From the NCBI GenBank assembly GCA_032249735.1, contig JAVVHA010000012.1, positions 6,346 through 70,345 of the forward strand: 64,000 nucleotides of DNA, in the 5' to 3' direction. The notes under the pieces were generated by a model. That model had not been told where the DNA came from and did no database searches. It worked only from the letters and a program-made list of their open reading frames with translations. Shown piece after piece: positions 25,903 to 56,363 of this stretch. The position numbers and the translations under genes were made by a program. The DNA is from Dehalococcoidia bacterium (GTDB lineage: Bacteria > Chloroflexota > Dehalococcoidia > SM23-28-2 > HRBIN24). Position 1 is the stretch's first letter. Each line of letters opens with the position of its first letter.

Positions 25903-26658
25903 TTAGCGGAAGAGGTCGCGCTCGGCCGGGCGCACCATGTCAGTAGCCCGGCCGGGGCCCGGGAGGTAGCGAAAGCCACGGATAAGGGCCACCGGCACCC
26001 TCTCCAGCTTACCCATCACCAGCTCAGCAGCCGCTGCCAGCTCATCCGCCACGGCCATGTTGGTCACCCGCAGCACATATCCATAGGGGTCCGTCTGCCC
26101 CACGTAGTTTTGGAACGGTGACATGCCGGCCACCCCCACGGCCACGTTGACATGCCCCTCCCGCCAGGGACGGCCGAAGGTGTCACTTATGATGACCGCC
26201 ACCTCTACCCCTGCCACCTCCCGGAGGCGACGGCGGATGGTCTCCGCCGAGGCGTCAGGGTCCAAGGGCAGGAGGGAGACATACCCCTCGCCGGCCACGT
26301 TGGAGGTATCGATGCCAGCATTGGCGCATACGAACCCATGCCTCGTCTCGGTGATGAGGACGCCCCGCTCCGCCCGCACGATACGCCGGCTCTCCCGCAA
26401 CACCAGCTCCACCAACCGAGGGTCCTTGTCCAGGCGAGCGGCCAGCTGGCGCGCCTCAGGCGATGGCTCCACCTGGGCCAAGGCCACCACCCGACCCTCG
26501 GCCTTGGAGACCACCTTCTGGGTCACCACCACTACGTCCCCGTCCTGAAGCTCTGTCCCCTGGGCATGGGCGGCCTGGGCGATGAGAAGGCCCAAGTCGT
26601 CCCCCTCCCTTATCTCCCCCATACCGGCGATGCCGATGATGCGCACTTCGGGAGCCAT
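25903..26658 (-). CDS. cofE: Coenzyme F420-0:L-glutamate ligase
   Basis: About 250 aa with VCANAGIDTSNV and the characteristic CofE/FbiB N-domain layout. Confidence 0.85.
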   Translation of the reverse strand: MAPEVRIIGIAGMGEIREGDDLGLLIAQAAHAQGTELQDGDVVVVTQKVVSKAEGRVVALAQVEPSPEARQLAARLDKDPRLVELVLRESRRIVRAERGVLITETRHGFVCANAGIDTSNVAGEGYVSLLPLDPDASAETIRRRLREVAGVEVAVIISDTFGRPWREGHVNVAVGVAGMSPFQNYVGQTDPYGYVLRVTNMAVADELAAAAELVMGKLERVPVALIRGFRYLPGPGRATDMVRPAERDLFR

Positions 26659-26659
26659 G

Positions 26660-27310
26660 TTAGATGCCTACGATGCGCACGCCCGTGCGGGCCTTATAGA
26701 TGCGGTTGAGGTTCAGCAAGAGAGCTGTCCACTCCTCCAAGTAGCGGGAGTTGGCCAGGATGCCAGCATCTACGGCCCTCACATACTCGATCTTCTCCGC
26801 CAGCTCCATCACCTGCCTCTTGGCCGAGCGGTCGTCGGAACAGATGAGGATATCCCCTTGCATGGGCTTCTCCACCGTCTGAAGGAGGTGGGCATCCAGG
26901 TGATGGAAGCCGCTCACCACCCGCGATTTGGGCAAAAGCTTCTGGGCCTGCTGAGCCGCCGAACCTTCAGGCACATCTATGGCCCGCACCCCTCTCTTGC
27001 TGAACTCCAAAGGAACCACTACATCCACCACTATCTTGTCCTCCAGGAGGGAGGCCAGGGATGCTACCGTGTCCCGGTGTCCCTCATATGGCACCGTGAT
27101 GAACACTATCTCCCCCTCCCTTGCCGCCTCAGCGTTGAGGAGGCCACGCACCTTGGCCTGAGGGACCTTCTCCCGCACCGTCTCCGCCGCCTGCAGAGCC
27201 CTTTCCTCGGAGCGGGAGCCGATGATCACCTCCTCCCCGGCCTTGGCAAAGCGCATAGCCAGCCCCAAACCCTCGGGTCCCGTCCCTCCTATGAAAGCGA
27301 TGACGGCCAT
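26660..27310 (-). CDS. F420-dependent NADP(H) oxidoreductase (Fno/Npd family)
   Basis: MAVIAFIGGTGPEGLGLAMRFAKAGEEVIIGSRS, a classic Fno N-terminus. The ATG at 27310 has a GGAGG RBS. Confidence 0.85.
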   Translation of the reverse strand: MAVIAFIGGTGPEGLGLAMRFAKAGEEVIIGSRSEERALQAAETVREKVPQAKVRGLLNAEAAREGEIVFITVPYEGHRDTVASLASLLEDKIVVDVVVPLEFSKRGVRAIDVPEGSAAQQAQKLLPKSRVVSGFHHLDAHLLQTVEKPMQGDILICSDDRSAKRQVMELAEKIEYVRAVDAGILANSRYLEEWTALLLNLNRIYKARTGVRIVGI

Positions 27311-27361
27311 CCACACTCCTCCTTCGGCGTTAGAGTCCTCAAGCCGTATTATGGCACTGAG

Positions 27362-28543
27362 ATGGCACTGCCCACCAGGATAAGCAGAAGGGGCCTCGCT
27401 GCCCTGGCCCATGCCCTCCTGCTGGTCTCCCTGGCCACCCTAGCGGCCTGGGGCGGCCTGGTGCTAGAGAAGCGCCTTCGCTCCTCTGACCCCATAGAGC
27501 GCATCGCATCCCCCTTCCGCCACGACACGGTGTCGTGGGAGGTGCACGCCTTTCTGACCAAGGCGGCGGCCAAGTTGGGGCGGATCCTGCCCAACCAAGA
27601 AGACCATGAGGAGCTTTTACGCCGGTTCTACACCCTCTCAGCCCGCCTCGCCCGCTCCAACGACCCCTCCCTCCTGCAGGAGCACCAACGCCTCCGCAAC
27701 CGAGTGGAGACCATCCTGGAGGGGCGCATCACCCGTCTTCTAAAGGAGGAGGGTATCACCTTCCGCCCTCCCCTGTTCGACCACTGGGAGCTGGTATTCC
27801 CCCCGGTGGCTGTTGACCTGGCCTCGCCCCCTACAGTGCTGGTGGTCTCCCCGAGGGAGGCCATAAGGCTGGAGCGGGCCATCCTCCTAGCTCCAGGCAT
27901 GGACATACCCCTTAGAGAGGCTATGGAAAGGGATGTGGACGCCACGGGCGTCTCCTCACTAGTGGTGAGCGTCGGGGGGATGGCCACCTACCCCAGCACA
28001 GTGGCCCCCCTCACCTCCTACTCTGCTACGGTGGAGACGGCCATCCACGAATGGGTCCACCACTACCTGGCCCTCTTCCCTCTGGGCCGCCACTACTTCC
28101 ATAGCCCTGAGATGCGAACCATCAACGAGACTGTGGCCGACATGGTGGCCAAGGAGCTGACAGCCAAGTTCACTCAGAGATGGCCTGCCCCCATCCAGGA
28201 GGTACCGCCTTCACCTCCCCCAGCGCAGCTGATCCACCGACTCCGCGCCCTGCGCCAGCAGGTGGAGGCCCTGCTGGCCAGGGGCGATGTGCCGAGGGCG
28301 GAACGGTTGATGGAGGAAGAGCGGGAGAGGTTGGCAAAGGAGGGGTTTTACTTTCGCAAGATCAACCAGGCCTTCTTCGCCTTCTATGGCCTATATGCTG
28401 AGAGCCCCGCATCCATCAGTCCCATCGGCGACAAGCTTAAGGCCTTGCGCAGGAGGGCTGGCTCCCTCCGGAGCTTCCTGGAGCTGGTGTCGGGGATCAC
28501 TAGCGAGGCGGAGCTGGACATGATGCTGGCCTCATCAAACTAG
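27362..28543 (+). CDS. Membrane-anchored hypothetical protein with an HExxH motif (putative zinc metallopeptidase-like)
   Basis: N-terminal TM helix (LAALAHALLLVSLATLAAW), AIHEWVHHYL (HExxH), and a C-terminal coiled coil. The real start is the second copy of a direct ATGGCACTGA repeat. Confidence 0.55.
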   Translation: MALPTRISRRGLAALAHALLLVSLATLAAWGGLVLEKRLRSSDPIERIASPFRHDTVSWEVHAFLTKAAAKLGRILPNQEDHEELLRRFYTLSARLARSNDPSLLQEHQRLRNRVETILEGRITRLLKEEGITFRPPLFDHWELVFPPVAVDLASPPTVLVVSPREAIRLERAILLAPGMDIPLREAMERDVDATGVSSLVVSVGGMATYPSTVAPLTSYSATVETAIHEWVHHYLALFPLGRHYFHSPEMRTINETVADMVAKELTAKFTQRWPAPIQEVPPSPPPAQLIHRLRALRQQVEALLARGDVPRAERLMEEERERLAKEGFYFRKINQAFFAFYGLYAESPASISPIGDKLKALRRRAGSLRSFLELVSGITSEAELDMMLASSN

Positions 28544-34271: not shown

Positions 34272-35735
34272 GTGAGCGAGCCCCTCTACGCCCTCACCAT
34301 CCATGAGGCTGCTGAGCTATTGCGCCGCCGAGAGATCACCTCCCTGGAGCTCACTGAATCTGTTTTGCACCGTATCCAGGAGACGGAGCCCCATCTCAAT
34401 GCTTTTATCACTATCACCGCCGACCTAGCCCTGGCCCAGGCACGCCAAGCTGATGAGCGGCTAGAGCGGGGCGAGGCCCATCCCCTGACAGGGGTGCCAG
34501 CGGCCATCAAGGACATCATCTGCACTAAGGGCGTCCGCACCACCTGCGGCTCCCATATGCTGGAGAACTACATCCCCCCATATGACGCCACAGCCATAGA
34601 GAGGCTGCGCCGGGTGGGTATGGTCATGGTGGGCAAGACCAACATGGACGAGTTCGCCATGGGCTCCTCGGGGGAGAACTCGGCCTTCGGGCCCACCCAT
34701 AACCCCTGGGACCTGGAGCGGGTCCCCGGCGGCTCTTCCTCCGGCTCGGCGGCGGCGGTGGCCGCCCAGCAGTGCATCTACTCCCTAGGCAGCGATACAG
34801 GCGGCAGCATCCGCCAACCGGCGGCCCTGTGCGGCGTGGTGGGGTTCAAGCCCACCTACGGACGTGTCTCCCGTTATGGGCTGGTGGCCTTCGCCTCCTC
34901 CCTAGACCAGATCGGCCCCATCACGAAAGATGTGCGGGACGCCGCCCTGGTCCTAGGGGTCATCGCTGGCCATGACCCCCTCGACTCCACCTCCGCCCCC
35001 GTGGCAGTCCCTGACTACACCGCGGCCCTGGTCCCTGACCTTAAGGGGGTCCGTGTGGGAGTGCCCAAGGAGTACCTGGGTGAGGGACTAGATAAAGGAT
35101 CGCGGGAGGCCGTCATGGCGGCCATAGGCGTCTTGCAGGAGCTGGGGGCGGAGGTAGACTGGGAGGTCTCCCTTCCTACCACCCCTTATGCCCTGGCCTG
35201 CTACTATATCATCGCCCCCAGCGAGGCCTCGGCCAACCTGGCCCGATACGACGGGGTCAAGTACGGTTTCTCTTACACCGAGGGCGCCTCCATGTGGGAG
35301 AATATGGAAAAGACACGTCAGTACGGGTTCGGCATGGAGGTGAAGCGGCGCATCATGCTGGGGGCCTATGCCCTCTCCGCCGGCTACTACGATGCCTACT
35401 ATCTGAAGGCCCTCAGGGTGCGGACCCTCATCTGCCGTGAATTTGAGGCCGCCTTCCAAAGCCATGACGTGCTGGTGACCCCCGTCTCCCCCACCCCAGC
35501 CTTCCGCCTGGGGGAGAAGGTTCACGACCCCCTGCAGATGTATCTGAGCGATATCTTCACCATCCCCATCAACATCGCCGGGCTGCCGGCCATCTCTGTG
35601 CCCTGTGGGTTCAGCCAGGGCCTGCCTGTGGGGCTGCAGATCATCGGCCGCCCCTTTGAGGAGGCCACCGTCCTGCGGGTAGCCTACGCCTACGAGCAGG
35701 CCACCCCCTGGCACAACAGGAGGCCTCCCCTATGA
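34272..35735 (+). CDS. gatA: Asp-tRNA(Asn)/Glu-tRNA(Gln) amidotransferase subunit A
   Basis: Amidase signature ([22 protein letters not shown]). Confidence 0.95.
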
Positions 35736-36220
35736 GCGCATCGGGCCTGGGCAAGGTGGTGGCCGTCTGCCTGAGCCCCCACCCGGGCATACCCAAATAC
35801 CCACAGGAGCGGGTGACGGTGGGGCCCTGGGGCATCGTGGGCGATTATCACGCCCGTCCCCACACCGTACACCCGCGCTGGGACGGAACGCGTCCCAACC
35901 GACGGCAGGTCAGCATCGTCGCTCGGGAAGTATACGCGGAGCTGGAGAGGGCCCTGGGCATAAAGGTGCCTCCTGGGGGTTTCGCCGAAAACGTATTGGT
36001 GCAAGGCCTGGGCGACCTCTCCCACCTCCAGCCCGGCCAGCGCTTGCTCTTTTCCTCCGGTGTCGTGCTGGAGGTCACAGCCCAGAACATCCCCTGCAAG
36101 AACCTCGCCGTCTACCATCCCCAGGTCCCCAAGCTAGTCTACGGCCGGCGGGGGGTGGTGGCGGTGGTCGTGACCACGGGCACCATCTCCCCTGGCGACC
36201 TGGTGAGGATAGGGCCATGA
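35732..36220 (+). CDS. MOSC domain-containing protein
   Basis: A YiiM-like beta-barrel with a conserved Cys (NIPCKNL). ATGA-coupled to gatA. Confidence 0.75.
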
Positions 36221-43497: not shown

Positions 43498-44448
43498 TTA
43501 CCACCATACCTTCCCCTCCACCTCCTCCGGCTGCAGGGCCTCCTGCCCTTTGGTCCAGAGGCCGGTGGAGAGGTACTTCCAGCCGCCGTCAGCGAACAAG
43601 CAGACGATATTGCCCCGTTGCAGCCTCTCCGCCACCCGCAGGGCGGTGCGCAGGACGGCACCGGAGGAGATGCCGGCAAATATCCCCTCCCGGTCCATCA
43701 GCTCCTTGGTCATGGCAAAGGAAGTGCGGGAGTCCACCACGATGCGTCCGTCCAGCACCGACTCGTCCAACACTGGCGGGATAAACCCTTCCTCCAGGCT
43801 GCGCAGCCCCTGCACGAGGTCGCCAGGATGGGGCACGGTGGCGATGACCTTCACCTTAGGGTTGTGCTCCTTGAGCCGCCGCCCCACACCCGTGAGGGTG
43901 CCGCCGGTCCCCAGCCCCGCCACAAACACGTCCACCTCCGGCAGGTCGCGGATGATCTCCACGGCGGTGGTCTCGTAATGGGCGCGGGGGTTGTTGGGGT
44001 TGCCGTATTGGTAGGGCATGTAGTAGCGCTGGGGGTCCTCCTCCACCATGCGCTGGGCAAGGGCGATGGCGTCGTTGGTGGAGCGGGCCCCCCGGGCATA
44101 CACCACCTCGGCGCCGAAGGAGCGGATGAGCTGTTCCCTCTCAGGGGTCACGTTATCGGGCAGGACGCACACCACCCGATAGCCCTTGACGCGGCCCACC
44201 ATGGCCAGGCTTATGCCCGTATTGCCACTGGTGGGCTCCAGAATGATCTTCTCCGGCGTCAGCGCGCCCGACTCCTCGGCAGCCCGGATCATGTAGAGAG
44301 CGATGCGGTCCTTAAGGCTGCCGCTGGGGTTCTGCCCCTCCAACTTGGCGAAGATGCGCACCCCAGGCTTGGGCTGGAACCGCCGCAGCTCCACCAGGGG
44401 AGTGTTACCGATGCACTCCAAGATGTTGGCATAGACCCTCCCCCCCAT
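43498..44448 (-). CDS. cysM: Cysteine synthase B-type PLP enzyme (CysM-like sulfhydrylase)
   Basis: IGNTPLVEL, SGSLKDR (PLP Lys), and TSGNTGISLA. The ATG at 44448 is preferred. The longer ORF-track start at 44496 would overlap the CysO-like stop. Confidence 0.85.
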   Translation of the reverse strand: MGGRVYANILECIGNTPLVELRRFQPKPGVRIFAKLEGQNPSGSLKDRIALYMIRAAEESGALTPEKIILEPTSGNTGISLAMVGRVKGYRVVCVLPDNVTPEREQLIRSFGAEVVYARGARSTNDAIALAQRMVEEDPQRYYMPYQYGNPNNPRAHYETTAVEIIRDLPEVDVFVAGLGTGGTLTGVGRRLKEHNPKVKVIATVPHPGDLVQGLRSLEEGFIPPVLDESVLDGRIVVDSRTSFAMTKELMDREGIFAGISSGAVLRTALRVAERLQRGNIVCLFADGGWKYLSTGLWTKGQEALQPEEVEGKVWW

Positions 44449-44482: not shown

Positions 44483-44767
44483 TTAACCCCCAACATCTCC
44501 TCCTGCCAGGGCAGGGAGGATGGAGATCACGTCCCCATCCTGCACCGGCGTGTCCAGCTGCTGGAGAAAACGCACGTCTTCATCATTGAGATAGATGTTC
44601 ACGAACCGGTGCAGGCGGCCATTGTCCAAGACGCTGGCCTTGATGCCGGGGAACATCTCGTCCAGGCGGTCCAAGACCTCGCCGATGGTGGCTCCCTCCA
44701 CCTGCACGGAGCGCCTTCCCCCGGCCAGCCTTTGCAGGTTCGCCGTGAGCCTCACCTCTATCGCCAT
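44483..44767 (-). CDS. CysO/MoaD/ThiS-type sulfur-carrier protein with a C-terminal GG followed by a 4-residue extension (…ILPALAGG-DVGG)
   Basis: 94 aa. A beta-grasp pattern like M. tuberculosis CysO (RLAGG..., FVNIYLNDEDVRFLQ, ILPALAGG). The ATG at 44767 has a GGGG RBS. Confidence 0.8.
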   Translation of the reverse strand: MAIEVRLTANLQRLAGGRRSVQVEGATIGEVLDRLDEMFPGIKASVLDNGRLHRFVNIYLNDEDVRFLQQLDTPVQDGDVISILPALAGGDVGG

Positions 44768-44814
44768 TGCCAGCCCCTTTCCATTATATTGCGCAGTCCT
44801 TTCTGCGCATATCT

Positions 44815-45903
44815 TCACTCGTGCCTCCCTGGGAAGGGGGCACCGCAAAAGCCTTCGTAATCGATGAGCTGAGTGATGGTGGGCTCATCGCCACACAGGG
44901 GGCATGCGGGATCCCGCCGCAGCTTGACTACCCGGAACTCGCCCGCCAGGGCATCGTAGAGGAGGAGGCGCCCCACCATGGGCTCGCCGATGCCCAGGAT
45001 GAGCTTTATGGTCTCCACCGCCTGTAGGGAGCCGATGACACCTGTGAGGGCGCCCAGGACGCCCGCCTCAGCACAGCTGGGCACCGCCCCTGGCGGGGGA
45101 GGTGAGGGGAAGAGGCAACGGTAGCAGCCCCGGCCGGGCATGAACACCGTCATCTGGGCGTCGAACATGAGGATGGAGGCGTCCACCAGGGGCTTGCCGG
45201 CGAAGTAACAGGCATCGTTGACCAGGTAGCGGGTGGTGAAGTTGTCGGCCCCGTTCACCACCACGTCATACTGGGGGATGATGTCCATGGCGTTGTCGGA
45301 GGTGAGGGGGCCATCGTGGATGACCACGTTGACGTCCGGATTGTAGGAGAGGATGGTCTCCCTGGCCGACTCCGTCTTGGGGCGCCCTACGTCGTCGTTC
45401 TGATGGAGGATCTGGCGCTGGAGGTTGGAGAGGTCCACCACATCGAAGTCCACGATGCCGATGGTGCCCACGCCGGCCAGGGCCAAGTAGAGGGCGGCGG
45501 GGGAGCCCAGGCCTCCCGCTCCTACCACCAGCACCTTAGCCGCCAGGAGCTTGCGCTGGCCCACCGGGCCCACCTGGGGCATGATGATGTGGCGCGAGTA
45601 GCGCAGCACCTGCTCTGGGGTCAGCACCTGGCCACCGGCGATGGCCGGGATGATGGCCACCTCGTCGCCGTCCTGCACCGGTGTCTCCGGCCCCTGCAGG
45701 GTGTGGATCTCTTGATTGTTGAGGTAGACGTTGATGTGGGCGGGGATATGCCGCTGCTGGTCGAAGATCATGTTGGCCAGGGCGGGGAAGTGACGTGCCA
45801 GGTCCTCTAGGATCTCCCGCACCGTCCTGCCTTGGGCCTGCACATAGACCTGGTTGCCCGTAAGCCTTCGGAAGGGCGTCGGTATGTAGACGGTCACGCT
45901 CAC
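44815..45903 (-). CDS. E1-like adenylyltransferase (MoeB/ThiF/MoeZ family) with an N-terminal fused CysO-like beta-grasp domain; no rhodanese domain
   Basis: The N-terminal 91 aa (VTVYIPTPFRRLTGNQ...VAIIPAIAGG) are a CysO paralogue, followed directly by the E1 Rossmann fold (VLVVGAGGLGSPAALYLALAGVG, crossover-loop Cys in SCAEAGVLG) and a C-terminal CPLCG Zn motif. A GTG start with an AGGAGGAGG RBS. Confidence 0.85.
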   Translation of the reverse strand: MSVTVYIPTPFRRLTGNQVYVQAQGRTVREILEDLARHFPALANMIFDQQRHIPAHINVYLNNQEIHTLQGPETPVQDGDEVAIIPAIAGGQVLTPEQVLRYSRHIIMPQVGPVGQRKLLAAKVLVVGAGGLGSPAALYLALAGVGTIGIVDFDVVDLSNLQRQILHQNDDVGRPKTESARETILSYNPDVNVVIHDGPLTSDNAMDIIPQYDVVVNGADNFTTRYLVNDACYFAGKPLVDASILMFDAQMTVFMPGRGCYRCLFPSPPPPGAVPSCAEAGVLGALTGVIGSLQAVETIKLILGIGEPMVGRLLLYDALAGEFRVVKLRRDPACPLCGDEPTITQLIDYEGFCGAPFPGRHE

Positions 45904-45918
45904 GCTTTTCCTCCTCCT

Positions 45919-46839
45919 TTACTCCAAGAAGCTGTAACGCTCGCCGGTGTCCGGCAGGATGGTCACCACCCGCTTGCCCCGGCCCATCCGCTTGGCCACT
46001 TTGATGGCTGCCACCACATTGGCCCCCGATGATATGCCCACCAGGAGCCCCTCCTCACGGGCCAGACGGCGGGCCATGGCCATGGCCTCTTCGTCCCCCA
46101 CGCCGATGACCTCGTCGATGATGCGCCGGTTGAGGACGCCAGGGACGAAGCTGGCGCCTATGCCCTGGATGGCATGGGGGCCTGGTCTGCCCCCTTGCAA
46201 GACGGGCGAGCGGGAGGGCTCCACTGCCACCACCAAGATGTTGGGGTTGTGCTGCTTTAGGACCTCGCCAACGCCGGTGATGGTGCCGCCCGTGCCCACC
46301 CCAGCCACGAAGGCGTCCAGCCGCCCCTCCGTGGCCTCCAAGATCTCCTGGGCGGTGGTGCGACGGTGGATCTCGGGGTTGGCGGGGTTCTCGAACTGCT
46401 GGGGCATGAAGTAGTCGGGGTTGTTGCGCACCAGCTCCTCAGCGGCGTAGACCGCCCCCGTCATCCCCTCTAGGGCCGGGGTGAGGACCACCTCCGCCCC
46501 GAATCGGGCCAGGAGGTCGCGACGGGCCAGGCTCATGTCTTCGGGCATGGTGACGATGAGGCGGTACCCCTTCACAGCCGCCACCATGGCCAGGCCGATG
46601 CCCGTGTTACCGCTGGTGGGTTCCACGATGGTAGCCCCTGGCTTGAGGATGCCCCGTCGCTCGGCGTCCTCGATCATGGAGAGGGCGATGCGATCCTTGA
46701 CGGAGCCAGCGGGGTTGAGGGACTCCAGCTTAGCCACGATCTCTGCCGCCCCATTGGGCACCACGCGGTTGAGGCGCACCATGGGCGTGTCGCCTATAAG
46801 GTCGAGGACGCTGTCCACGATCCTAGCGCGCCTGGCCAT
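45919..46839 (-). CDS. cysK: Cysteine synthase A (O-acetylserine sulfhydrylase)
   Basis: [26 protein letters not shown], and [10 protein letters not shown]. Confidence 0.9.
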
Positions 46840-46847
46840 GCTCGCCC

Positions 46848-47291
46848 CTAGATAACGTACCTATCGGCCCGCACCGCCCGCTGCCGGTCCTTGGCGGCCA
46901 GCTCGGCTATGGTCACCCGGTCCAGCACTTGCATAATGGCTCGCTGGACCTCCTCCCACATCTCCCGCTGGGCACAGCCGCCGGCGCGGCTGCACTCGGA
47001 GGCCTCCTCCAGACACTCCACCGGTATGAGCTCTCCCTCGAGGGCCCTTATGACGTCGCTCACCCTTATCTCGTTGGGGTGGCGGGCCAGGGCATGCCCC
47101 CCCTGCGGGCCCCGCACGCTGCGCACCAGCCCAGCCCGCCGCAGCATGGCCAAAAGCTGCTCCAGATAAGACTCAGGGATGTTCTGGCGAGCGGCGATCT
47201 CAGCGCTCTGGGTGAGCCGTCCTTCCCCATACCGGTGGGCCAGCTCGATGAGGGCGCGGATGCCGTAGTCCCCCTTGCTCGATATGCGCAT
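46848..47291 (-). CDS. Rrf2-family transcriptional regulator (CymR/IscR-like)
   Basis: [18 protein letters not shown], wHTH, and C-terminal Cys residues (CSRAGGC). The ATG is at 47291. Confidence 0.85.
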
Positions 47292-47363
47292 GCATCCCAC
47301 CAAGAAAGTGGAGTGGTTTCATCAACAATACTAGCATGGGCCATGTGTGGGGGCAAGGGGCCG

Positions 47364-47627
47364 CTAAGGCGCCGGGCGGGTGGGTGGCAGACCTAGGCGA
47401 GCGGCCAGCTCCCCGTTGGTGGGCTCCACTAGATAGTCTCCTTCGGGGAACACCACCACCGGTATGATGAAGCGGCCCCCATTGACCTGAAGGACGTACT
47501 GCCTGGCCTCCTGGTCGGCCTCCACGTCCAGCCAGCGGAAGGGTACGCCCCAGTCGGTGAGGAACTGCTTGGCGCGACGGCAGTCGGGGCACCAGTTGGC
47601 CCCATAGACGTATACGATGCCAGTCAC
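47364..47627 (-). CDS. Glutaredoxin-like small redox protein (CPDC motif)
   Basis: [20 protein letters not shown], a thioredoxin-fold N-terminus. The GTG start overlaps the upstream stop (GTGA). Confidence 0.7.
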
Positions 47628-47905
47628 GCCCCGCCTCCCGCCACAGCGGGCACGATGCTTACCTCATCACCTGGCTTGAGGACGGTATCCAGACCTTGGA
47701 GGAAGCGCACGTCCTCGCCGTTGACGTATACGTTGACGAAGCGGCGCAACTGGCCCGCCTCGTCCACAAGCCGCTCCTTGAGGCCCGGGAACCGGGCCTC
47801 AAGGGCCTCGATGCAGTCCTTGAGGCGGGAGCCCTCGGCGGTCACCACCTCCTGGCCACCGGTGAGGCGGCGCAAGGGGGCTGGGATGCGTACCTTCACG
47901 CTCAT
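47624..47905 (-). CDS. CysO/MoaD/ThiS-type sulfur-carrier protein, C-terminus …[10 protein letters not shown]
   Basis: [31 protein letters not shown], and IVPAVAGG closely mirror M. tuberculosis CysO. Two extra residues follow the Gly-Gly. Confidence 0.85.
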
Positions 47906-48170: not shown

Positions 48171-49421
48171 CTACCCTTTGCTGGCCATGAGGGCTTCCTG
48201 ACGACGGGCCATAGCCTCCTCAAAGGAGGCGATGGTGGGCATTACCACCACGGGCTCAGGCAGGACGCCCTCTACGGCCTCCCGCGTCTTAAGGCCGGCC
48301 CCTGTGATGAATGCTACCACCGTCTCGTCCGGGGCGAAAGAGCCTGCCTGGGCCAGACGCTTGAGGGCAGCCACCACCACCCCCCCAGCCGTCTCAGCGA
48401 ATATCCCTTCTGTCTCGGCCAGGAGCCGCATCCCCTCCACGATCTCATCGTCGGACACGGCCACCCCATAGCCACCGCTCTCGTTGAGGACGCGCAGGGC
48501 GTAATAGCCGTCGGCGGGGTTGCCAATGGCCAACGATTTGGCGATGGTGTTGGGGCGCTGGGGTCGGATATCGTAGCTCTTGCGCTCCCAGGCCTCCACC
48601 ACCGGTGAGCAGCCCAAGGCCTGAGCGGCCGTCATGCGCGGTGGCCGCCACTCCACCAGGCCCAGCCAGGCCAGCTCCTTCATGCCCTTGTAGATCTTGG
48701 TGAACAGGGAGCCGCTGGCCACCGGCACCACGCAGTGATGGGGGATGCGCCAGCCCAGCTGCTCGCACACCTCGTAGCCCAGGGTCTTGGAGCCTTCAGC
48801 GTAATAGGGGCGGACGTTGATGTTAACGAAGGCCCATGGGTACCTCTCGGCCAGCTCGCTGCACAGGCGGTTGACATCATCATAGGACCCCTTCACGGCC
48901 ACCAGGGTGGGGCCATAGATGGCCGAGCCCACCACCTTGCCCACCTCCAGGTCGGCGGGGATGAAGACTAGAGCCCGCAGCCCAGCGCGGGCGGCATGAG
49001 CGGCTACGGAGTTAGCCAGGTTGCCAGTGGAGGCACAGGCCAAGGTATCGAAGCCGAACTCCCGGGCCTTGGTGGCCGCCACCGATACCACCCGGTCTTT
49101 GAAGGACCAGGTGGGGTTTACGCAATCGTTCTTAATATAGAGGTGGCGCAGCCCCAGGGCCTTGCCCAGACGGGGAGCAGGCAACAGAGGGGTGAAGCCA
49201 GCGCCGATGTCCACCGGCTCCCCTTCCACCGGCAATAGTTCGCGATAGCGCCAGATGGTGTAAGGCCCCCCCTCGATGCGGCGACGAGATATGTGCCTGC
49301 GTAGGGCCTCGTAATCGTAAGTCACTTCCAGGGGTCCGAAGCAGAACTCGCACACATATATGGGCTCCAGCGGGTACAGGCGCCCACACTCGCGACACCT
49401 CAGACTTTTGGCGAAGGACAT
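48171..49421 (-). CDS. Threonine-synthase-family PLP enzyme with an N-terminal Zn-ribbon (candidate homocysteine-forming MetM-like enzyme)
   Basis: CRECG...CEFC ribbon, SFKDR (PLP Lys), and ASTGNLANSVAAHAARAG. The ATG at 49421 has a GGAGGG RBS and lies 20 nt downstream of the riboswitch terminator. Confidence 0.85.
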   Translation of the reverse strand: MSFAKSLRCRECGRLYPLEPIYVCEFCFGPLEVTYDYEALRRHISRRRIEGGPYTIWRYRELLPVEGEPVDIGAGFTPLLPAPRLGKALGLRHLYIKNDCVNPTWSFKDRVVSVAATKAREFGFDTLACASTGNLANSVAAHAARAGLRALVFIPADLEVGKVVGSAIYGPTLVAVKGSYDDVNRLCSELAERYPWAFVNINVRPYYAEGSKTLGYEVCEQLGWRIPHHCVVPVASGSLFTKIYKGMKELAWLGLVEWRPPRMTAAQALGCSPVVEAWERKSYDIRPQRPNTIAKSLAIGNPADGYYALRVLNESGGYGVAVSDDEIVEGMRLLAETEGIFAETAGGVVVAALKRLAQAGSFAPDETVVAFITGAGLKTREAVEGVLPEPVVVMPTIASFEEAMARRQEALMASKG

Positions 49422-49476: not shown

Positions 49477-49571
49477 CTCGCCTTCGGTCCCCCGCCACAT
49501 CCCGCGCGCCGGCGCCCATTGCAATAAAGGAGGCCCCTTCCACTAGAGGGAAGAGGCCATATCCAGGCCAG

Positions 49572-49716
49572 CTCCCCCTTATCGTCCCCCACCTCAAGGC
49601 GGGGACGGCGTTGGCACCGCTGCACGGGCTCGGCTCAGGACCTGAAGCCCTGGCCTGACCCCGGCCGGTTGCCGGGCTTCACAGGGCCGTTCCCTCCACC
49701 TCTCTGGATAAGAGGG
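49572..49716 (-). promoter_or_regulatory. SAM-I (S-box) riboswitch aptamer
   Basis: Minus-strand CUCUUAUCCAGAGAGGUGGAGGGAACGGCCCUGUGAAGCCCGGCAACC...GGUGCCAACGCCGUCC...GAUAAGGGGGAG matches the S-box consensus (UCUUAUCnAGAG.GGnGGAGGGAnnGGCCC.AUGAAnCCCnGCAACC...GGUGCnAA...GAUAAG), with P1 closed by CUCUUAUC/GAUAAGGG. Confidence 0.85.
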
Positions 49717-49743
49717 GCCGTATTCGGTTGTCAGGGCTTTATC

Positions 49744-51060
49744 CTAGCATGCCCCCCACTGTGTGTCAACGGGCCGCGGGGCCCCCTCGCGCCCCCTTGG
49801 CAGAACTACCACGAAGGTGGCACCCCGCCCCAGCTGGCTCTCTGCCCAGATGCGGCCGCCGTGGGCCTCCACTATGGCCTTAGCGATGGCCAGCCCCAGC
49901 CCCGCCCCTCCATCCTCATCGCGGCGGCGGGCGCGGTCGGCCCGATAGAAGCGGTCGAAGATGCGGGGCAGGTCCTGGGGGTCGATGCCCACCCCTGTAT
50001 CGGCCACCTCCAGACGGGCCCTATCGCCATCGGCGGCGGCCCTCACCTCCACCCTGCCTCCCGCGGGGGTGAATTTGATGGCGTTGTCCAACAGGATGAA
50101 CAGAAGCTCCCGCAGGCGGGTGGCATCGCCCCACAGGGGGACGGCGCCCGGGGCCACCACCTCTCCTTGCAGGCCCTTCTCCTGAAGGCGGGGCGAGAGC
50201 TGACGCACGGCGTCCCGAGCCAACTGGGCCAAGTCCACCTCCTCCCTGTGCAGGGGAAGACGGCCAGCGTCGGCCCGAGCCAGGGTCAGCAGCTGGGACA
50301 CGAGGCGGGCCAGTCGCTCGCTCTCGCCGATGATATCCTCCACCTCCTGCCGGTGAGCCGAGATAGGCTCCTCGGGGTGACGTTGGAGGATCTCGGCGCT
50401 GGCCCTGATGAGGGAGAGGGGGGTCCGGAGTTCATGGGAGGCATCGGCCATGAAGGTCCGCTGGCGCTCCATAGCCTCTTTGATGGGACGGAGGGCCCGC
50501 CCGGCCAAGAAATAGCCCCCGCCTACCGACAGGAGGATGGCACCTACCCCTCCTGCCAGCAGAATCACCAGGAGGTTGTGCAGGGCAGATAGCTCAGGCT
50601 CGAGGCTCCGTCCCACCAGTAGCACCAGCCCAGGGCCCATCCCCACGGGCCGCAGATAGATACGCACCTCCTCCCCATCGTGCGACTGGACGGTCAGGAG
50701 CTTGGGCCCCCTTGCTAACACCTCCTGCGTATCCTGGGACGGGGGGAGAATGGTGGGGTCCAAGTTGCGGCTGGCGGCCAGGAGCTGCCCATGGGGCCCT
50801 AACAGGGCATACATATATGCGTAGGACCCCTCCTCTGGCCCCACCTGAACATCCCCTATGGCCTGCTGCCTCTCCAGGAGGCGTAGACGGGCATTGAGGA
50901 GGGGCAGCTCCCGTTCCGCCCGCGTGCGCAGCTCGTCGTCCACGTTCCCCAGCACCATGTGACGGACCGTGAGGTACACGGCTAGGCCCAATAGGGTCAG
51001 GGCCACCGCCAGGACTGCCGCAAACCAAAGGGCGAGGCGCCAGCGAGCGGACGCGAACAC
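49744..51060 (-). CDS. Two-component sensor histidine kinase (TM, HAMP, HisKA, HATPase)
   Basis: Two TM helices, ASHELRTPLSLI (H-box), and N, G1 and G2 boxes. Confidence 0.9.
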   Translation of the reverse strand: MFASARWRLALWFAAVLAVALTLLGLAVYLTVRHMVLGNVDDELRTRAERELPLLNARLRLLERQQAIGDVQVGPEEGSYAYMYALLGPHGQLLAASRNLDPTILPPSQDTQEVLARGPKLLTVQSHDGEEVRIYLRPVGMGPGLVLLVGRSLEPELSALHNLLVILLAGGVGAILLSVGGGYFLAGRALRPIKEAMERQRTFMADASHELRTPLSLIRASAEILQRHPEEPISAHRQEVEDIIGESERLARLVSQLLTLARADAGRLPLHREEVDLAQLARDAVRQLSPRLQEKGLQGEVVAPGAVPLWGDATRLRELLFILLDNAIKFTPAGGRVEVRAAADGDRARLEVADTGVGIDPQDLPRIFDRFYRADRARRRDEDGGAGLGLAIAKAIVEAHGGRIWAESQLGRGATFVVVLPRGREGAPRPVDTQWGAC

Positions 51061-54082: not shown

Positions 54083-55039
54083 TCACCCTAAGGAGCTAGC
54101 CCTCATCTCCCGCAAGCGGGGGGCCACCTCTGTGGCCAGCAACCGCAGATGGTCCCACAGCTCCTCCGGCCGGCAGATGGGGGAGAGCACCAGGTGCTCC
54201 GCCCCCGCTTCCAGGAAGCGGCCCAGCATGGCCGCACACTCCTCGGGGGGGCCGCAAGGGACACAGTGGCGAATGGCCTCTCGTAAGGGACGGTTGTAAA
54301 ACCCCTCCAGGTAGGTGGTAGCCAAGGCCTCCCCTTCCTCCCGTGTGCGGGCCAGCGCGATGAACACGAACAGGGCGGGGACGATGGCCTCCGCGTCCCG
54401 GCCAGCCTCCATGGCGTGGCGACGCACCTGTAAAAGGGCCTCCCGGTACCGTTGCGGGGAGAACATCCAGGGCAAAAACCCGTCCCCCATATGACCAGCG
54501 CGGCGCATGGCTGCTGGGGCGCGGCCCCCCACCCAGATGGGCGGCCCGCCGGGTCGGGCCGGCGACGGCTGGAGACGGAATGACTCCAGCCTGTACCCTG
54601 GGCCCGCATGTGTCACTTCCTCCCCTCGCCACAGACGGCGCAGCACCGTGATGGCGTCGTCTGCCCTTTTACCCCTCTCCCTGAGGGGGACGCCACAGGC
54701 TGCCAGTTCCCAGGGGAACTCGCCCCCCACGCCCACCCCCAGGATGAGCCTTCCCTCAGAGAGAAGGTCCACCGTGGCAGCCTCTTTGGCCACCATGGCC
54801 GGCGGCCTCAGGGGCAGGATGACGACGCCCGCCCCCAGGAGGACCCGTCGGGTGACAGCCGCCAGGGCAGCCAACACCGTGAAGGCATCGAAGACGGCCC
54901 CATAACGGGGGACGTACAGATGGTCGCCCGTCCACAAGGAATCGAACCCCAACTCCTCCAGCTGGGGCAGACGCTCCCGCTCCCGCAAGAGCCGATCGAG
55001 GAAGAAGAAGAGGTTGACACCCACCTGCACGCCAGGCAC
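54083..55039 (-). CDS. LLM-class (luciferase-like) flavin/F420-dependent oxidoreductase
   Basis: A TIM-barrel LLM signature (GFDSLWTGDHL, RLILGVGVGG). Confidence 0.8.
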   Translation of the reverse strand: MPGVQVGVNLFFFLDRLLRERERLPQLEELGFDSLWTGDHLYVPRYGAVFDAFTVLAALAAVTRRVLLGAGVVILPLRPPAMVAKEAATVDLLSEGRLILGVGVGGEFPWELAACGVPLRERGKRADDAITVLRRLWRGEEVTHAGPGYRLESFRLQPSPARPGGPPIWVGGRAPAAMRRAGHMGDGFLPWMFSPQRYREALLQVRRHAMEAGRDAEAIVPALFVFIALARTREEGEALATTYLEGFYNRPLREAIRHCVPCGPPEECAAMLGRFLEAGAEHLVLSPICRPEELWDHLRLLATEVAPRLREMRASSLG

Positions 55040-55045
55040 ACTGCC

Positions 55046-55927
55046 CTACCCATTGCCCTCTTGGGACCCTTGCAGGGCCCGTCGCCATGCCTCCACCTCT
55101 GCCCGCCGGATACGCCAGAACTGGGGCCGCCTCTTCTCCAGGAAGGCCTGGGGGCCTTCCCGCGCCTCCCCTCGCTCGAAGAAGTCGTGGTGGAGCCAGT
55201 TGACGATGGTGCCCAACTGAGGCATGGTGTCCAGCTCCCAGTCGAAGGAGGCCTTAAGCACCTCCAGACAGCTGGGGGAGAGGGAGAGGAGCTCCTCGCA
55301 CCAACGGTCCACCTCCTCCTCCAGCCTCTCCAGGGGGACGACGCGGTTCACCAGCCCCATGGCCAGGGCCTGGCTGGCGTCGTAACGGCGGCAGAGCATC
55401 CACATCTCGCGGGCCCGCTTGGCCCCCACCACCCGTACCAGATAGGGCATGATATAGCCATCGGCGGGGCTGGCCACGCGGGGGCCGTTCTGGCCGAAGA
55501 TGGCGTTGTCGGCAGCGATGGTAAAGTCGCAACAATAGGCCAAATGGTTGCTGCCGCCGATGCAGTACCCTTTGACCATGGCGATGACCGGCTTGCGGCA
55601 CATGCGCACCAGCCGGTTGGGAGCATAGCGCCAGTAGAACTGTTCCCTCAGACCCCACTGCTCCCACTCCACGTCCCCGCCCACGCCGAAGTGGTCACCA
55701 ACGCCACTCAGCACCACCACGCCGATCATGGGGTCGTGGCTGGCGTCGTAGAAGGCGCGGAACATCTCATCCATGGTGTGGGCGGTGAAGGCGTTGAGGC
55801 GGTGGGGGCGGTTTACCAGGACCCTGGCTACTCCCCCCTCCAACTCGGTGTGGAACTTCTTTTCATAGATGATGTCGGTGAAGTCCATCCCCTCACCGGT
55901 CACCCTTTGCCATTCCGTCCAGCCCAT
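55046..55927 (-). CDS. Crotonase-fold enzyme of the MenB (1,4-dihydroxy-2-naphthoyl-CoA synthase) / BadI subfamily
   Basis: VLVNRPHRLNAF and GYCIGGSNHLAYCCDFTIAADNAIFGQNGPRVASPADG resemble the MenB active-site region. Confidence 0.7.
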   Translation of the reverse strand: MGWTEWQRVTGEGMDFTDIIYEKKFHTELEGGVARVLVNRPHRLNAFTAHTMDEMFRAFYDASHDPMIGVVVLSGVGDHFGVGGDVEWEQWGLREQFYWRYAPNRLVRMCRKPVIAMVKGYCIGGSNHLAYCCDFTIAADNAIFGQNGPRVASPADGYIMPYLVRVVGAKRAREMWMLCRRYDASQALAMGLVNRVVPLERLEEEVDRWCEELLSLSPSCLEVLKASFDWELDTMPQLGTIVNWLHHDFFERGEAREGPQAFLEKRRPQFWRIRRAEVEAWRRALQGSQEGNG

Positions 55928-55940
55928 GCTCGCACCTCCA

Positions 55941-56363
55941 TCAAAGGCTTCCTATGATACGCGTGGGCCCCTGTAGCCAGCCGAGAAGCATCTCCTCCGT
56001 GGCCAACTCAAGCCCCCTCATCTCCGGCATCCCCAGCAGGCGGCTCCAGATGGGACAGGCGTAGAGGGCCACCCCCTCTTGCTGAGCCTGTTGCAGGAGG
56101 GACCGCACGTCCACCTGGCGCCCTTCCCCCCTGCCCATGATGGGCAGGCCCAAATCGCGGGCAGCATCGGCCAGGCGCCACCTGGTCTCCTGGCCCTGTA
56201 GCTCCACGGGCCAGCGGAAGAAGCCATCGGCCACTGCCTTTAACGCCTCCTGGGTGAAGAGAACCCCCACCTTCTGGCCGGAGCGCCTAGCGGCCATGGC
56301 CGCTAGGAGAGTCCCCATTAGTGAGCTGGCCACGGCATCGCGACATATGAACAACAGGTCCAT
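55941..56363 (-). CDS. Hypothetical protein, possibly DsrE/DsrF-like
   Basis: 140 aa with an MDLLFICRD N-terminus. A weak resemblance only. Confidence 0.4.
   Translation of the reverse strand: MDLLFICRDAVASSLMGTLLAAMAARRSGQKVGVLFTQEALKAVADGFFRWPVELQGQETRWRLADAARDLGLPIMGRGEGRQVDVRSLLQQAQQEGVALYACPIWSRLLGMPEMRGLELATEEMLLGWLQGPTRIIGSL

Follow-up and report, generated by a model that had tools for sequence, protein, structure and literature searches.

A gene cluster on the minus strand of a 64-kb stretch of DNA from a Dehalococcoidia bacterium (the window, meaning the whole stretch analyzed, in which the cluster occupies 43.5 to 49.8 kb) encodes three CysO-like ubiquitin-like (Ubl) beta-grasp domains, two of them as free sulfur carriers and one joined to the N-terminus of a MoeB/ThiF-type E1 enzyme. 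Our results place this locus as an uncharacterized variant of the known thiocarboxylate-dependent biosynthesis of cysteine and homocysteine and not as a new category of system. We consider it probable, if well short of certain, that this supercluster makes homocysteine and cysteine via protein thiocarboxylates and that a peptidase of the Mec/HvJAMM1 type trims the tails of the free carriers and releases the fused one. The encoded Gly-Gly is not a free C-terminus in any of the three domains, being followed by GA, by DVGG or by 271 residues of E1, and because the encoded products continue beyond it, it can become a free C-terminus only after processing. A first-pass annotation of this DNA had argued that the blocked Gly-Gly implies maturation by a peptidase, and this is the natural inference, since the extensions and the fusion alike block the carboxylate.

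Domain calls were made with Pfam and NCBIfam, the riboswitch and RNase P RNA with Rfam, and structural comparisons by sequence alignment to PDB entries. The three domains lie on the minus strand where the first-pass annotation had put them, but they span 3.4 kb and not the 4.5 kb given there. Each matches the ThiS family PF02597 over positions 1-76 of 76, with E values of 2.4e-22 for free carrier 1 (CysO-1; whole model covered, match ending at residue 91), 3.8e-18 for free carrier 2 (CysO-2) and 6e-15 for the fused domain (residues 5-91), and each passes the NCBIfam SAMP1 cutoff of 60 bits (75.7, 64.9 and 60.9 bits). The free carriers end in ...VPAVAGG-GA and ...LPALAGG-DVGG, respectively. End-to-end alignment with the crystallized CysO proteins of Mycobacterium tuberculosis (3DWG_C) and Amycolatopsis orientalis (4N6E_B) sets the Gly-Gly of all three domains on the terminal Gly-Gly of both structures, so the residues that follow it are true extensions, as had been claimed for the GA and DVGG tails and for the E1 fusion. 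The three domains share 39-50% pairwise identity, and their identity to M. tuberculosis CysO ranges from 37 to 56% overall, the free carriers lying at 48-56% (CysO-1 at 56%) and the fused domain at 37%. A motif common to both free carriers and to the mycobacterial and Amycolatopsis CysO, HRFVNIYxNDEDVRF, is replaced in the fused domain by AHINxYxNNQEIHxL, and the replacement is conserved among fusions. Judged from its sequence, the fused domain is not a redundant copy of the free carriers, and having its own conserved surface motif, it probably has a different acceptor. The cysteine synthase CysK, whose gene stands directly upstream of the fusion in every locus with upstream sequence, is one candidate partner, although to name it is speculation.

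The beta-grasp domain and the MoeB/ThiF Rossmann domain (ThiF, PF00899, E=8e-84) do form one polypeptide, as the first-pass annotation had read it. The junction is ...IPAIAGG-QV-LTPEQVLRYSRH, and its codons (GCC GGT GGC CAG GTG CTG ACC) run through in frame. The gene begins with a GTG start, and a strong Shine-Dalgarno sequence (AGGAGGAGG) precedes it. The possibility that the E1 is translated on its own from within the gene was rejected, there being no Shine-Dalgarno sequence or start codon at the window junction. The E1 aligns with ThiF and MoeB structures (E=2e-60) and has the invariant residues G128-G133 (GxGxxG), R101 and R104 (RYSRH), D220 and two CxxC pairs (C260/C263 and C334/C337), with Cys277 as the crossover-loop cysteine. 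Against the NCBIfam UbaA model it gives E=8e-101 with a score below the cutoff. Neither Pfam nor NCBIfam finds a rhodanese domain in it, and the protein ends 25 residues past the second CxxC, which agrees with the earlier description of an E1 lacking the rhodanese domain of MoeZ, the hallmark of the MoeZ/MOCS3/Uba4 subtype. The C-terminal tail is LIDYEGFCGAPFPG, with an invariant Cys353. It was observed that residues 339-362 (window 44815-44890, minus strand) keep the conserved LIDYExFCGAPFPG stretch in spite of the missing rhodanese and that the equivalent stretch in MoeZ-type proteins leads into the rhodanese domain; a separate sulfurtransferase might dock on the tail with Cys353 or use it as a relay. 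An AlphaFold2 model of the fusion monomer was of moderate quality (predicted local distance difference test score [pLDDT], 72.6; predicted template modeling score, 0.69), with residues 87-110 below a pLDDT of 50 and no confident packing of the junction, and it is uninformative on the docking site of the domain. The low pLDDT at the junction would fit a flexible and accessible segment without proving one.

Related loci were collected by scanning one genome per species, which gave 80 loci, nearly all labeled Chloroflexota, from Dehalococcoidia metagenome-assembled genomes, Tepidiforma flava, Thermoflexus hugenholtzii and the bacteria HR24 and HR29, among others; open reading frames (ORFs) were called in all of them and then classified by phmmer against the window proteins. 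L001 is a syntenic relative, 98% related to the window, and L002 is also termed a 98% relative. Linker and Gly-Gly counts refer to 82 intact fusion ORFs from different species-level genomes. All 82 keep the motif P[AS]x[AS]GG, while the linker between the Gly-Gly and the LTPEQVxRYSRH helix is hypervariable and of low complexity, ranging from 2 to 32 residues with a median of 6; the Gln-Val linker of the window has the minimum length. In L063 (5493-6701) an in-frame TAG within the linker separates the two domains of the fusion; downstream of it the E1 has its own GGAGAG Shine-Dalgarno-like sequence and ATG, and the freed Ubl ends in ...ALAGG-SQPAAQAAAQ, a tail of 10 residues. The comparison was extended to distant architectures with an exhaustive HMMER search over 1.8 billion representative proteins: of the 13 distant homologues inspected, with identities as low as 42% and with other architectures among them, 12 have Gly-Gly at the end of the Ubl. 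Single polypeptides were found with the orders JAB-ThiS-Rhodanese-ThiF (P0129, 634 residues) and JAB-Ubl-ThiF-Rhodanese (P0205, 619 residues), as well as ThiS-ThiF-Rhodanese (P0122-P0124, P0133 and P0192) and ThiS-Rhodanese-ThiF (P0125).

The tails of the free carriers drift in the same set of relatives. Tails of 1-26 residues follow the Gly-Gly in about 48 of 73 carriers of the CysO-2 type and in about 10 of 35 of the MetO type to which CysO-1 is assigned below. The GA of CysO-1 is LT in the 98% relative GCA_053492355.1 and absent in an 86% relative and in most orthologues, and orthologues of CysO-2 end in DVGG, RGGR, EGGH, QSGP or ADSSHLPTRSS or have no tail. Because even the 98% relative differs and many orthologues end exactly in Gly-Gly, the tails do not read as conserved signals. 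In L030 and L031 the carrier 2 tails repeat the C-terminal motif of the protein itself (GG-SQPALAGGSQPALA and GG-GLPALAGGAR), and they look like small tandem duplications of the carrier end.

The first-pass annotation had found no JAMM protease in the window, and our searches agree: a motif scan and Pfam on about 40 ORFs (nearly all of the large ones) detected no JAMM/JAB peptidase, rhodanese or cysteine desulfurase in the 64 kb, tblastn of the window with JAB and rhodanese proteins from relatives gave no match, and the Pfam hits of the syntenic L001 contained none either. The remaining window ORFs are mostly housekeeping genes (purine and histidine synthesis, cell wall and similar). Among the 54 related loci with at least 6 kb of sequence downstream of the E1 gene, 35 have a Prok-JAB gene 1.1-6.6 kb downstream of it, usually right after cysM. 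Because Prok-JAB adjoins the cluster in these relatives, the absent JAMM is no puzzle at the level of the lineage. A tandem rhodanese resembling 3-mercaptopyruvate sulfurtransferase is also part of the cluster in 28 of the 54, so that the earlier remark that no sulfur donor could be named stands for the window but not for the relatives. The JABs match PF14464 and have the full E...HSHx7SxxD motif, with E23, H77, H79, S87 and D90 invariant in 11 aligned diverse sequences. Their best NCBIfam match is the HvJAMM1 "desampylase" model (82-88 bits, below the cutoff of 130), their best PDB matches are 2KKS and JAMM1 (5LDA), and some are named CysO-S-L-cysteine hydrolase by the Joint Genome Institute; a profile search returned about 8000 JABs of this Chloroflexota type. 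At least 11 loci retain the JAB even though neither free carrier there has a tail beyond its Gly-Gly.

The cluster can be divided into two modules (Table 1). Upstream, a complete S-box leader (49532-49769, minus strand), consisting of a promoter-like site, an S-adenosylmethionine (SAM) riboswitch aptamer and a terminator-like hairpin, precedes the gene of a ThrC-like pyridoxal phosphate (PLP) enzyme; the hairpin is likely the expression platform of the riboswitch. The riboswitch is found upstream of the orthologous gene in six of seven relatives, and in the seventh the upstream region is cut off. In related loci the ThrC-like gene is always followed by a gene for a NIL-domain protein and a carrier gene, the NIL gene lying between the other two in every related locus with the methionine module. 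MetM/MetO is arranged in a similar way, with a SAM riboswitch ahead of a ThrC-homologous gene and a MoaD-like carrier gene beside it, which makes the enzyme a candidate MetM-like homocysteine synthase using a thiocarboxylate carrier. CysO-1 belongs to the CysO family, as its provisional name implied, but is best read as a MetO-like homocysteine carrier because it is encoded in a SAM-riboswitch-controlled operon with a ThrC-like enzyme. The NIL protein could take part in methionine sensing or sulfur handling. The next gene encodes a glutaredoxin-like protein that matches a mycoredoxin model below its cutoff (E=4e-20); a 4-nucleotide overlap between its start and the carrier 1 stop suggests translational coupling, and among the related loci only L001 and L002 share the gene with the window. 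The protein could serve as reductant for an acyl-disulfide or persulfide intermediate.

The second module, Rrf2-CysK-UblE1-carrier-CysM, is the most conserved part of the locus and recurs in those of the roughly 80 loci that have enough sequence, the exceptions being L010 and a few assemblies that are rearranged or broken. Its first gene encodes a regulator that scores 130 bits against the CymR model, below the cutoff of 195. CysO-2 is followed after a gap of about 34 nucleotides by CysM, an arrangement kept in nearly all related loci, and in relatives CysM is followed by the JAB, with or without the rhodanese. We infer the pairing of carriers and enzymes from this arrangement, CysM being the presumed acceptor enzyme for carrier 2. 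In L010 (11000-15600) the fusion and a divergent CysM-JAB pair were observed with no carrier 2 gene beside either, and an ORF resembling a PP-loop ATPase follows the fusion gene; a locus without an adjoining carrier 2 is weakly consistent with the fused domain being a real carrier.

Table 1. Features of the proposed thiocarboxylate cluster, in order of transcription
Feature	Position in window	Strand	Description and support
Promoter-like site ahead of the methionine-module leader	49741-49769	-	TTGACA-17-TAGGAT with TG; consensus match alone
SAM-I riboswitch aptamer (RF00162)	49576-49714	-	74.1 bits against a gathering threshold of 44.4; full model matched
Terminator-like hairpin with U-rich tail	49532-49558	-	10-bp stem, 7 G-C pairs
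ThrC-like PLP enzyme with N-terminal zinc ribbon	48171-49421	-	PALP E=1e-74; Zn-ribbon (NinF) match
NIL-domain protein, about 80 residues	47918-48160	-	PF09383 E=6.5e-16
Free carrier 1 (CysO-1, MetO-like)	47624-47905	-	93 residues; Gly-Gly at residues 90-91; tail GA
Glutaredoxin/mycoredoxin-like protein, CPDC motif	47364-47627	-	PF00462 E=1e-13
Rrf2-family regulator, CymR/IscR-like	46848-47303	-	PF02082 E=6e-44
CysK-type cysteine synthase	45919-46839	-	TIGR01139 457 bits, cutoff 351
Ubl-E1 fusion protein	44815-45903	-	362 residues, 39 kDa; ThiS residues 5-91, ThiF residues 102-335
CysO-like beta-grasp domain of the fusion, residues 1-91	45631-45903	-	Gly-Gly codons GGT GGC at 45636-45631
Gln-Val linker of two residues, Gly-Gly to first E1 helix	45625-45630	-	
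MoeB/ThiF/UbaA-type E1 domain without rhodanese, residues 94-362	44815-45624	-	
Free carrier 2 (CysO-2)	44483-44767	-	94 residues; Gly-Gly at residues 89-90; tail DVGG
CysM-type cysteine synthase	43498-44448	-	PALP E=1e-72; TIGR01136 (cysKM) 348 bits, cutoff 344

Elsewhere in the window, a MOSC-domain protein, a member of a predicted sulfur-carrier domain family, is encoded about 8 kb from the cluster (35732-36220, plus strand), its gene adjoining an aminotransferase gene; it was identified via the syntenic L001, and no link to the cluster was established. The window also holds a bacterial class A RNase P RNA (RF00010; 20054-20435, minus strand; 294 bits) and two large ORFs without a Pfam match at E<=1e-5, at 26582-28543 (plus strand, 653 residues) and 54608-55957 (plus strand, 449 residues), the latter with a third-position GC content of 0.67, lower than that of its neighbors, so that it may not be a real gene.

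In the mechanism that we propose, the first module would convert O-phosphohomoserine and the thiocarboxylate of carrier 1 into homocysteine in the manner of MetM/MetO, and the second would work like the mycobacterial CysO/CysM/MoeZ/Mec route. The single rhodanese-less E1 would adenylate the Gly-Gly carboxylate of the carriers, and a separate persulfide donor, in many relatives probably the tandem rhodanese encoded in the cluster, would turn the adenylate into a thiocarboxylate. In the CysO/CysM cycle of M. tuberculosis the thiocarboxylate attacks the PLP-bound aminoacrylate, an S-to-N acyl shift gives carrier-GlyGly-Cys, and Mec hydrolyzes the amide and thereby releases cysteine. A Mec-type JAMM would accordingly hydrolyze carrier-GlyGly-Cys at every turnover, and the same activity would remove anything that is encoded after the Gly-Gly. 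In chemical terms, Mec takes a one-residue extension off the C-terminus, so a lineage with such a JAMM could tolerate any encoded extension, which would explain both the drifting tails and a whole protein appended to a carrier. The short GA and DVGG tails would be neutral, drifting pro-sequences, and the Ubl-E1 would be a precursor that is cut after Gly91 to give a third free carrier and an active E1. For the window itself we infer a JAMM gene elsewhere in the genome.

The first-pass annotation had left two fates for the fused carrier, a docking or regulatory role and proteolytic release. Our results favor release; a permanent role is possible but less favored. If the domain were never released, which we regard as rather unlikely, it would be a built-in module of the E1, and only the two free carriers would carry sulfur. 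As one option, it would have an adaptor role comparable to that of the eukaryotic E1 ubiquitin-fold domain and bring in acceptor enzymes or free carriers; as the other, it would be a pseudo-substrate that gates adenylation by filling the partner subunit's active site with its Gly-Gly tail. A permanent module would suit the free carrier genes that stand beside the fusion in nearly all loci, and Iyer, Burroughs and Aravind, in the cited passage on such fusions, took a stand-alone carrier beside the fusion as an argument for a distinct role of the fused Ubl (PMC1779556). It would also suit a conserved surface motif that differs from those of CysO, MetO and carrier 2, the two-residue linker of the window, which puts the domain beside the E1 N-terminal helix with the RYSR arginine, and the lack of a JAMM in the window and in the available flanks of its closest relatives. 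We nevertheless favor release because the Gly-Gly is invariant in the fusions and kept in most of the distant architectures, whereas the eukaryotic E1 ubiquitin-fold domain, a permanently fused Ubl, has none, because the tails are unconserved and a linker that varies so widely in length speaks against a fixed geometry, because the Ubl set free by the natural split in L063 is still intact and conserved and ends in a tail, and because the JAB is linked to the cluster and in some relatives fused in cis. L010, with no carrier 2 gene beside the fusion or CysM, also speaks against a permanent module.

Several points weigh against the release model and the pathway assigned here. The lack of a linked JAMM is not confined to the window: none was found in the available flanks of L001, L005, L007, L041 and the Tepidiforma clade, and the window clade (L001, L005, L007 and HR24) and the Tepidiforma clade have no JAB within 10 kb although their carriers are tailed; in T. 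flava (NZ_CP115149), for instance, no JAB adjoins the cluster and carrier 2 has a tail of one residue. These two clades must have an unlinked JAMM gene, or else the model fails there. The conservation of the JAMM is already explained by the CysO/CysM cycle and by tail trimming and is not specific to cleavage of the fusion, and the Gly-Gly could also be conserved for docking in an E1 active site, where the tail would act as pseudo-substrate. The CysO-family motif is altered in the fused domain. The ThrC-like enzyme scores just above the cutoff of the NCBIfam threonine synthase model (317 against 303 bits), and its assignment as MetM is contextual. Finally, our literature searches found no experimental work on Ubl-E1, MoaD-MoeB or CysO-MoeZ fusions and no observed cleavage of any Ubl-E1 fusion.

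A bolder reading, which we hold to be unlikely, makes the Ubl-E1 either a proteolytically controlled zymogen, an E1 that gates itself, or a permanent prokaryotic counterpart of the eukaryotic E1 ubiquitin-fold domain. In the gating version, the beta-grasp domain of the uncleaved homodimer would dock in trans with its Gly-Gly in the ATP site of the partner and block the free carriers, and cleavage by the JAMM, or its absence, would switch the flux of sulfur into cysteine and methionine. In the permanent version, the attached domain would recruit CysK, CysM or the ThrC-like enzyme.

It is improbable that the Ubl, the E1 and the JAMM mainly serve protein conjugation of the SAMP/TtuB type that regulates the neighboring cysteine and methionine enzymes, instead of or besides carrying sulfur. 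All three domains do pass the SAMP1 cutoff, the E1 matches UbaA and the JABs match the desampylase, and SAMP1 itself has a dual role in Haloferax (PMC4443979); however, the UbaA and desampylase scores fall under their cutoffs, and the closest structures (E=1e-23) are CysO proteins crystallized together with CysM in 3DWG and the thiosugar synthase BexX in 4N6E. The free carrier genes lie beside or near genes of PLP sulfhydrylase-type enzymes and the fusion gene directly after cysK, and the presence of a SAM riboswitch and an Rrf2/CymR-like regulator suggests a biosynthetic function.

That the tails need no peptidase, the E1 activating an extended C-terminus such as GGDVGG or an unrelated carboxypeptidase doing the trimming, is very unlikely. 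The CysO-2 tail ends in GG in the window and L001, and the window has no JAMM gene, but the terminal GG is not kept in close orthologues (RGGR, EGGH and QSGP), CysO-1 ends in GA or LT, and the CysO-2 tail lengthens the arm by 4 residues compared with the CysO structures. DVGG as a usable new Gly-Gly terminus was therefore rejected, not being conserved in orthologues.

The first-pass annotation had also allowed that sequencing errors or frameshifts could explain the fusion and the extensions, and this we dismiss, since the identical 362-residue protein is present on 22 contigs of independent ENA and Logan assemblies (the longest, 258 kb, among those of ERZ27249315 and ERZ27249316), the junction is in frame with conserved residues on either side, both Pfam domains are listed for all of the best 120 database matches (at least 76% identity) except P0003, for which only ThiF is listed, and the two-domain architecture is kept in more than 80 species-level genomes (the 82 ORFs above) and in thousands of database proteins.

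The synthesis of cysteine and methionine through protein thiocarboxylates has been characterized in few organisms (Mycobacterium, Wolinella and Streptomyces); judging by this locus, a single cluster may serve both pathways in a large and mostly uncultured lineage of Chloroflexota. The fusion of a carrier to its E1 is apparently unstudied. Release by a JAMM, if true, would be a bacterial metabolic example of ubiquitin-style precursor processing and would explain why tails can drift freely wherever a Mec-type hydrolase sits in the catalytic cycle; a carrier that stays fused would instead represent a new form of E1 regulation. The fusion appears in databases under varying names, MoeB, ThiF or "ubiquitin-like small modifier protein 1," and these, like threonine synthase for the ThrC-like gene, are misleading for pathway reconstruction.

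Among known systems, the tails can be compared with those of QbsE/QbsD in quinolobactin synthesis and HcyS/HcyD in Wolinella, where one or two residues after the Gly-Gly are removed by a JAMM or other metalloprotease before adenylation. In both, the tails are short and the protease gene is in the cluster, adjacent to the carrier gene, whereas here the orthologues have anything from no tail to 26 residues and, in the extreme, a whole enzyme. A rhodanese-less E1 that serves several Ubl carriers is known from Thermus (TtuB/TtuC) and Haloferax (SAMP/UbaA), with the persulfide coming from separate rhodanese or desulfurase proteins; those E1s have no fused carrier. The CysO/CysM/MoeZ(R)/Mec+ system of M. 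tuberculosis (3DWG; PMC3227635) shares with the locus described here CysO-family carriers aligned on the Gly-Gly that terminates CysO, an adjoining CysM-type gene and an E1 of the MoeZ/UbaA type, and in most relatives a Mec-like JAMM after CysM. The window differs from it in an E1 that has an N-terminal carrier domain and no rhodanese, in its three paralogous and tailed carriers, in having no linked JAMM within 64 kb and in a block that includes CysK and an Rrf2 regulator. The cited passages on MetM/MetO of Streptomyces albulus (Hasebe et al. 2024, as cited in 10.1101/2024.10.14.618325 and PMC12172450) describe the formation of homocysteine from O-phosphohomoserine and the MetO thiocarboxylate, with Mec and a MoeZ-type E1 as required helpers, and a SAM riboswitch upstream of metM. 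A ThrC-homologous gene by a MoaD-like carrier gene, with a SAM riboswitch upstream, is the likeness to our methionine module, and it is a likeness of arrangement; the window cluster adds an N-terminal zinc ribbon and a NIL gene between enzyme and carrier, and a NIL protein is not part of the description in those passages.

For the fusion itself there are two comparisons. SAMP1-MoaE of Haloferax and MoaX (MoaD-MoaE) of M. tuberculosis are likewise sulfur-carrier beta-grasp domains fused via their Gly-Gly to a partner, and both must be cut exactly after it to be active: HvJAMM1 cuts the linear SAMP1-MoaE fusion there, the fusion being inactive without it (PMC4443979), and MoaX requires cleavage after Gly82 (PMC4326299). 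In the window the partner is the activating E1 and not the acceptor MoaE, and cleavage is what we propose. The architecture has more precedent than the first-pass annotation suggested, since fusions with an N-terminal Ubl and a ThiF domain were already catalogued by Iyer, Burroughs and Aravind in 2006 (PMC1779556); in the cited part of that survey they have the same Ubl-then-E1 order and, as here, are accompanied by the gene of a free-standing carrier and in one case also by cysteine and methionine enzymes. Their Ubl is described there as a family distinct from ThiS, while the domain in the window is clearly of the CysO/SAMP1-type ThiS/MoaD kind, with an invariant Gly-Gly, a Chloroflexota distribution and a linkage to JAMM peptidases.

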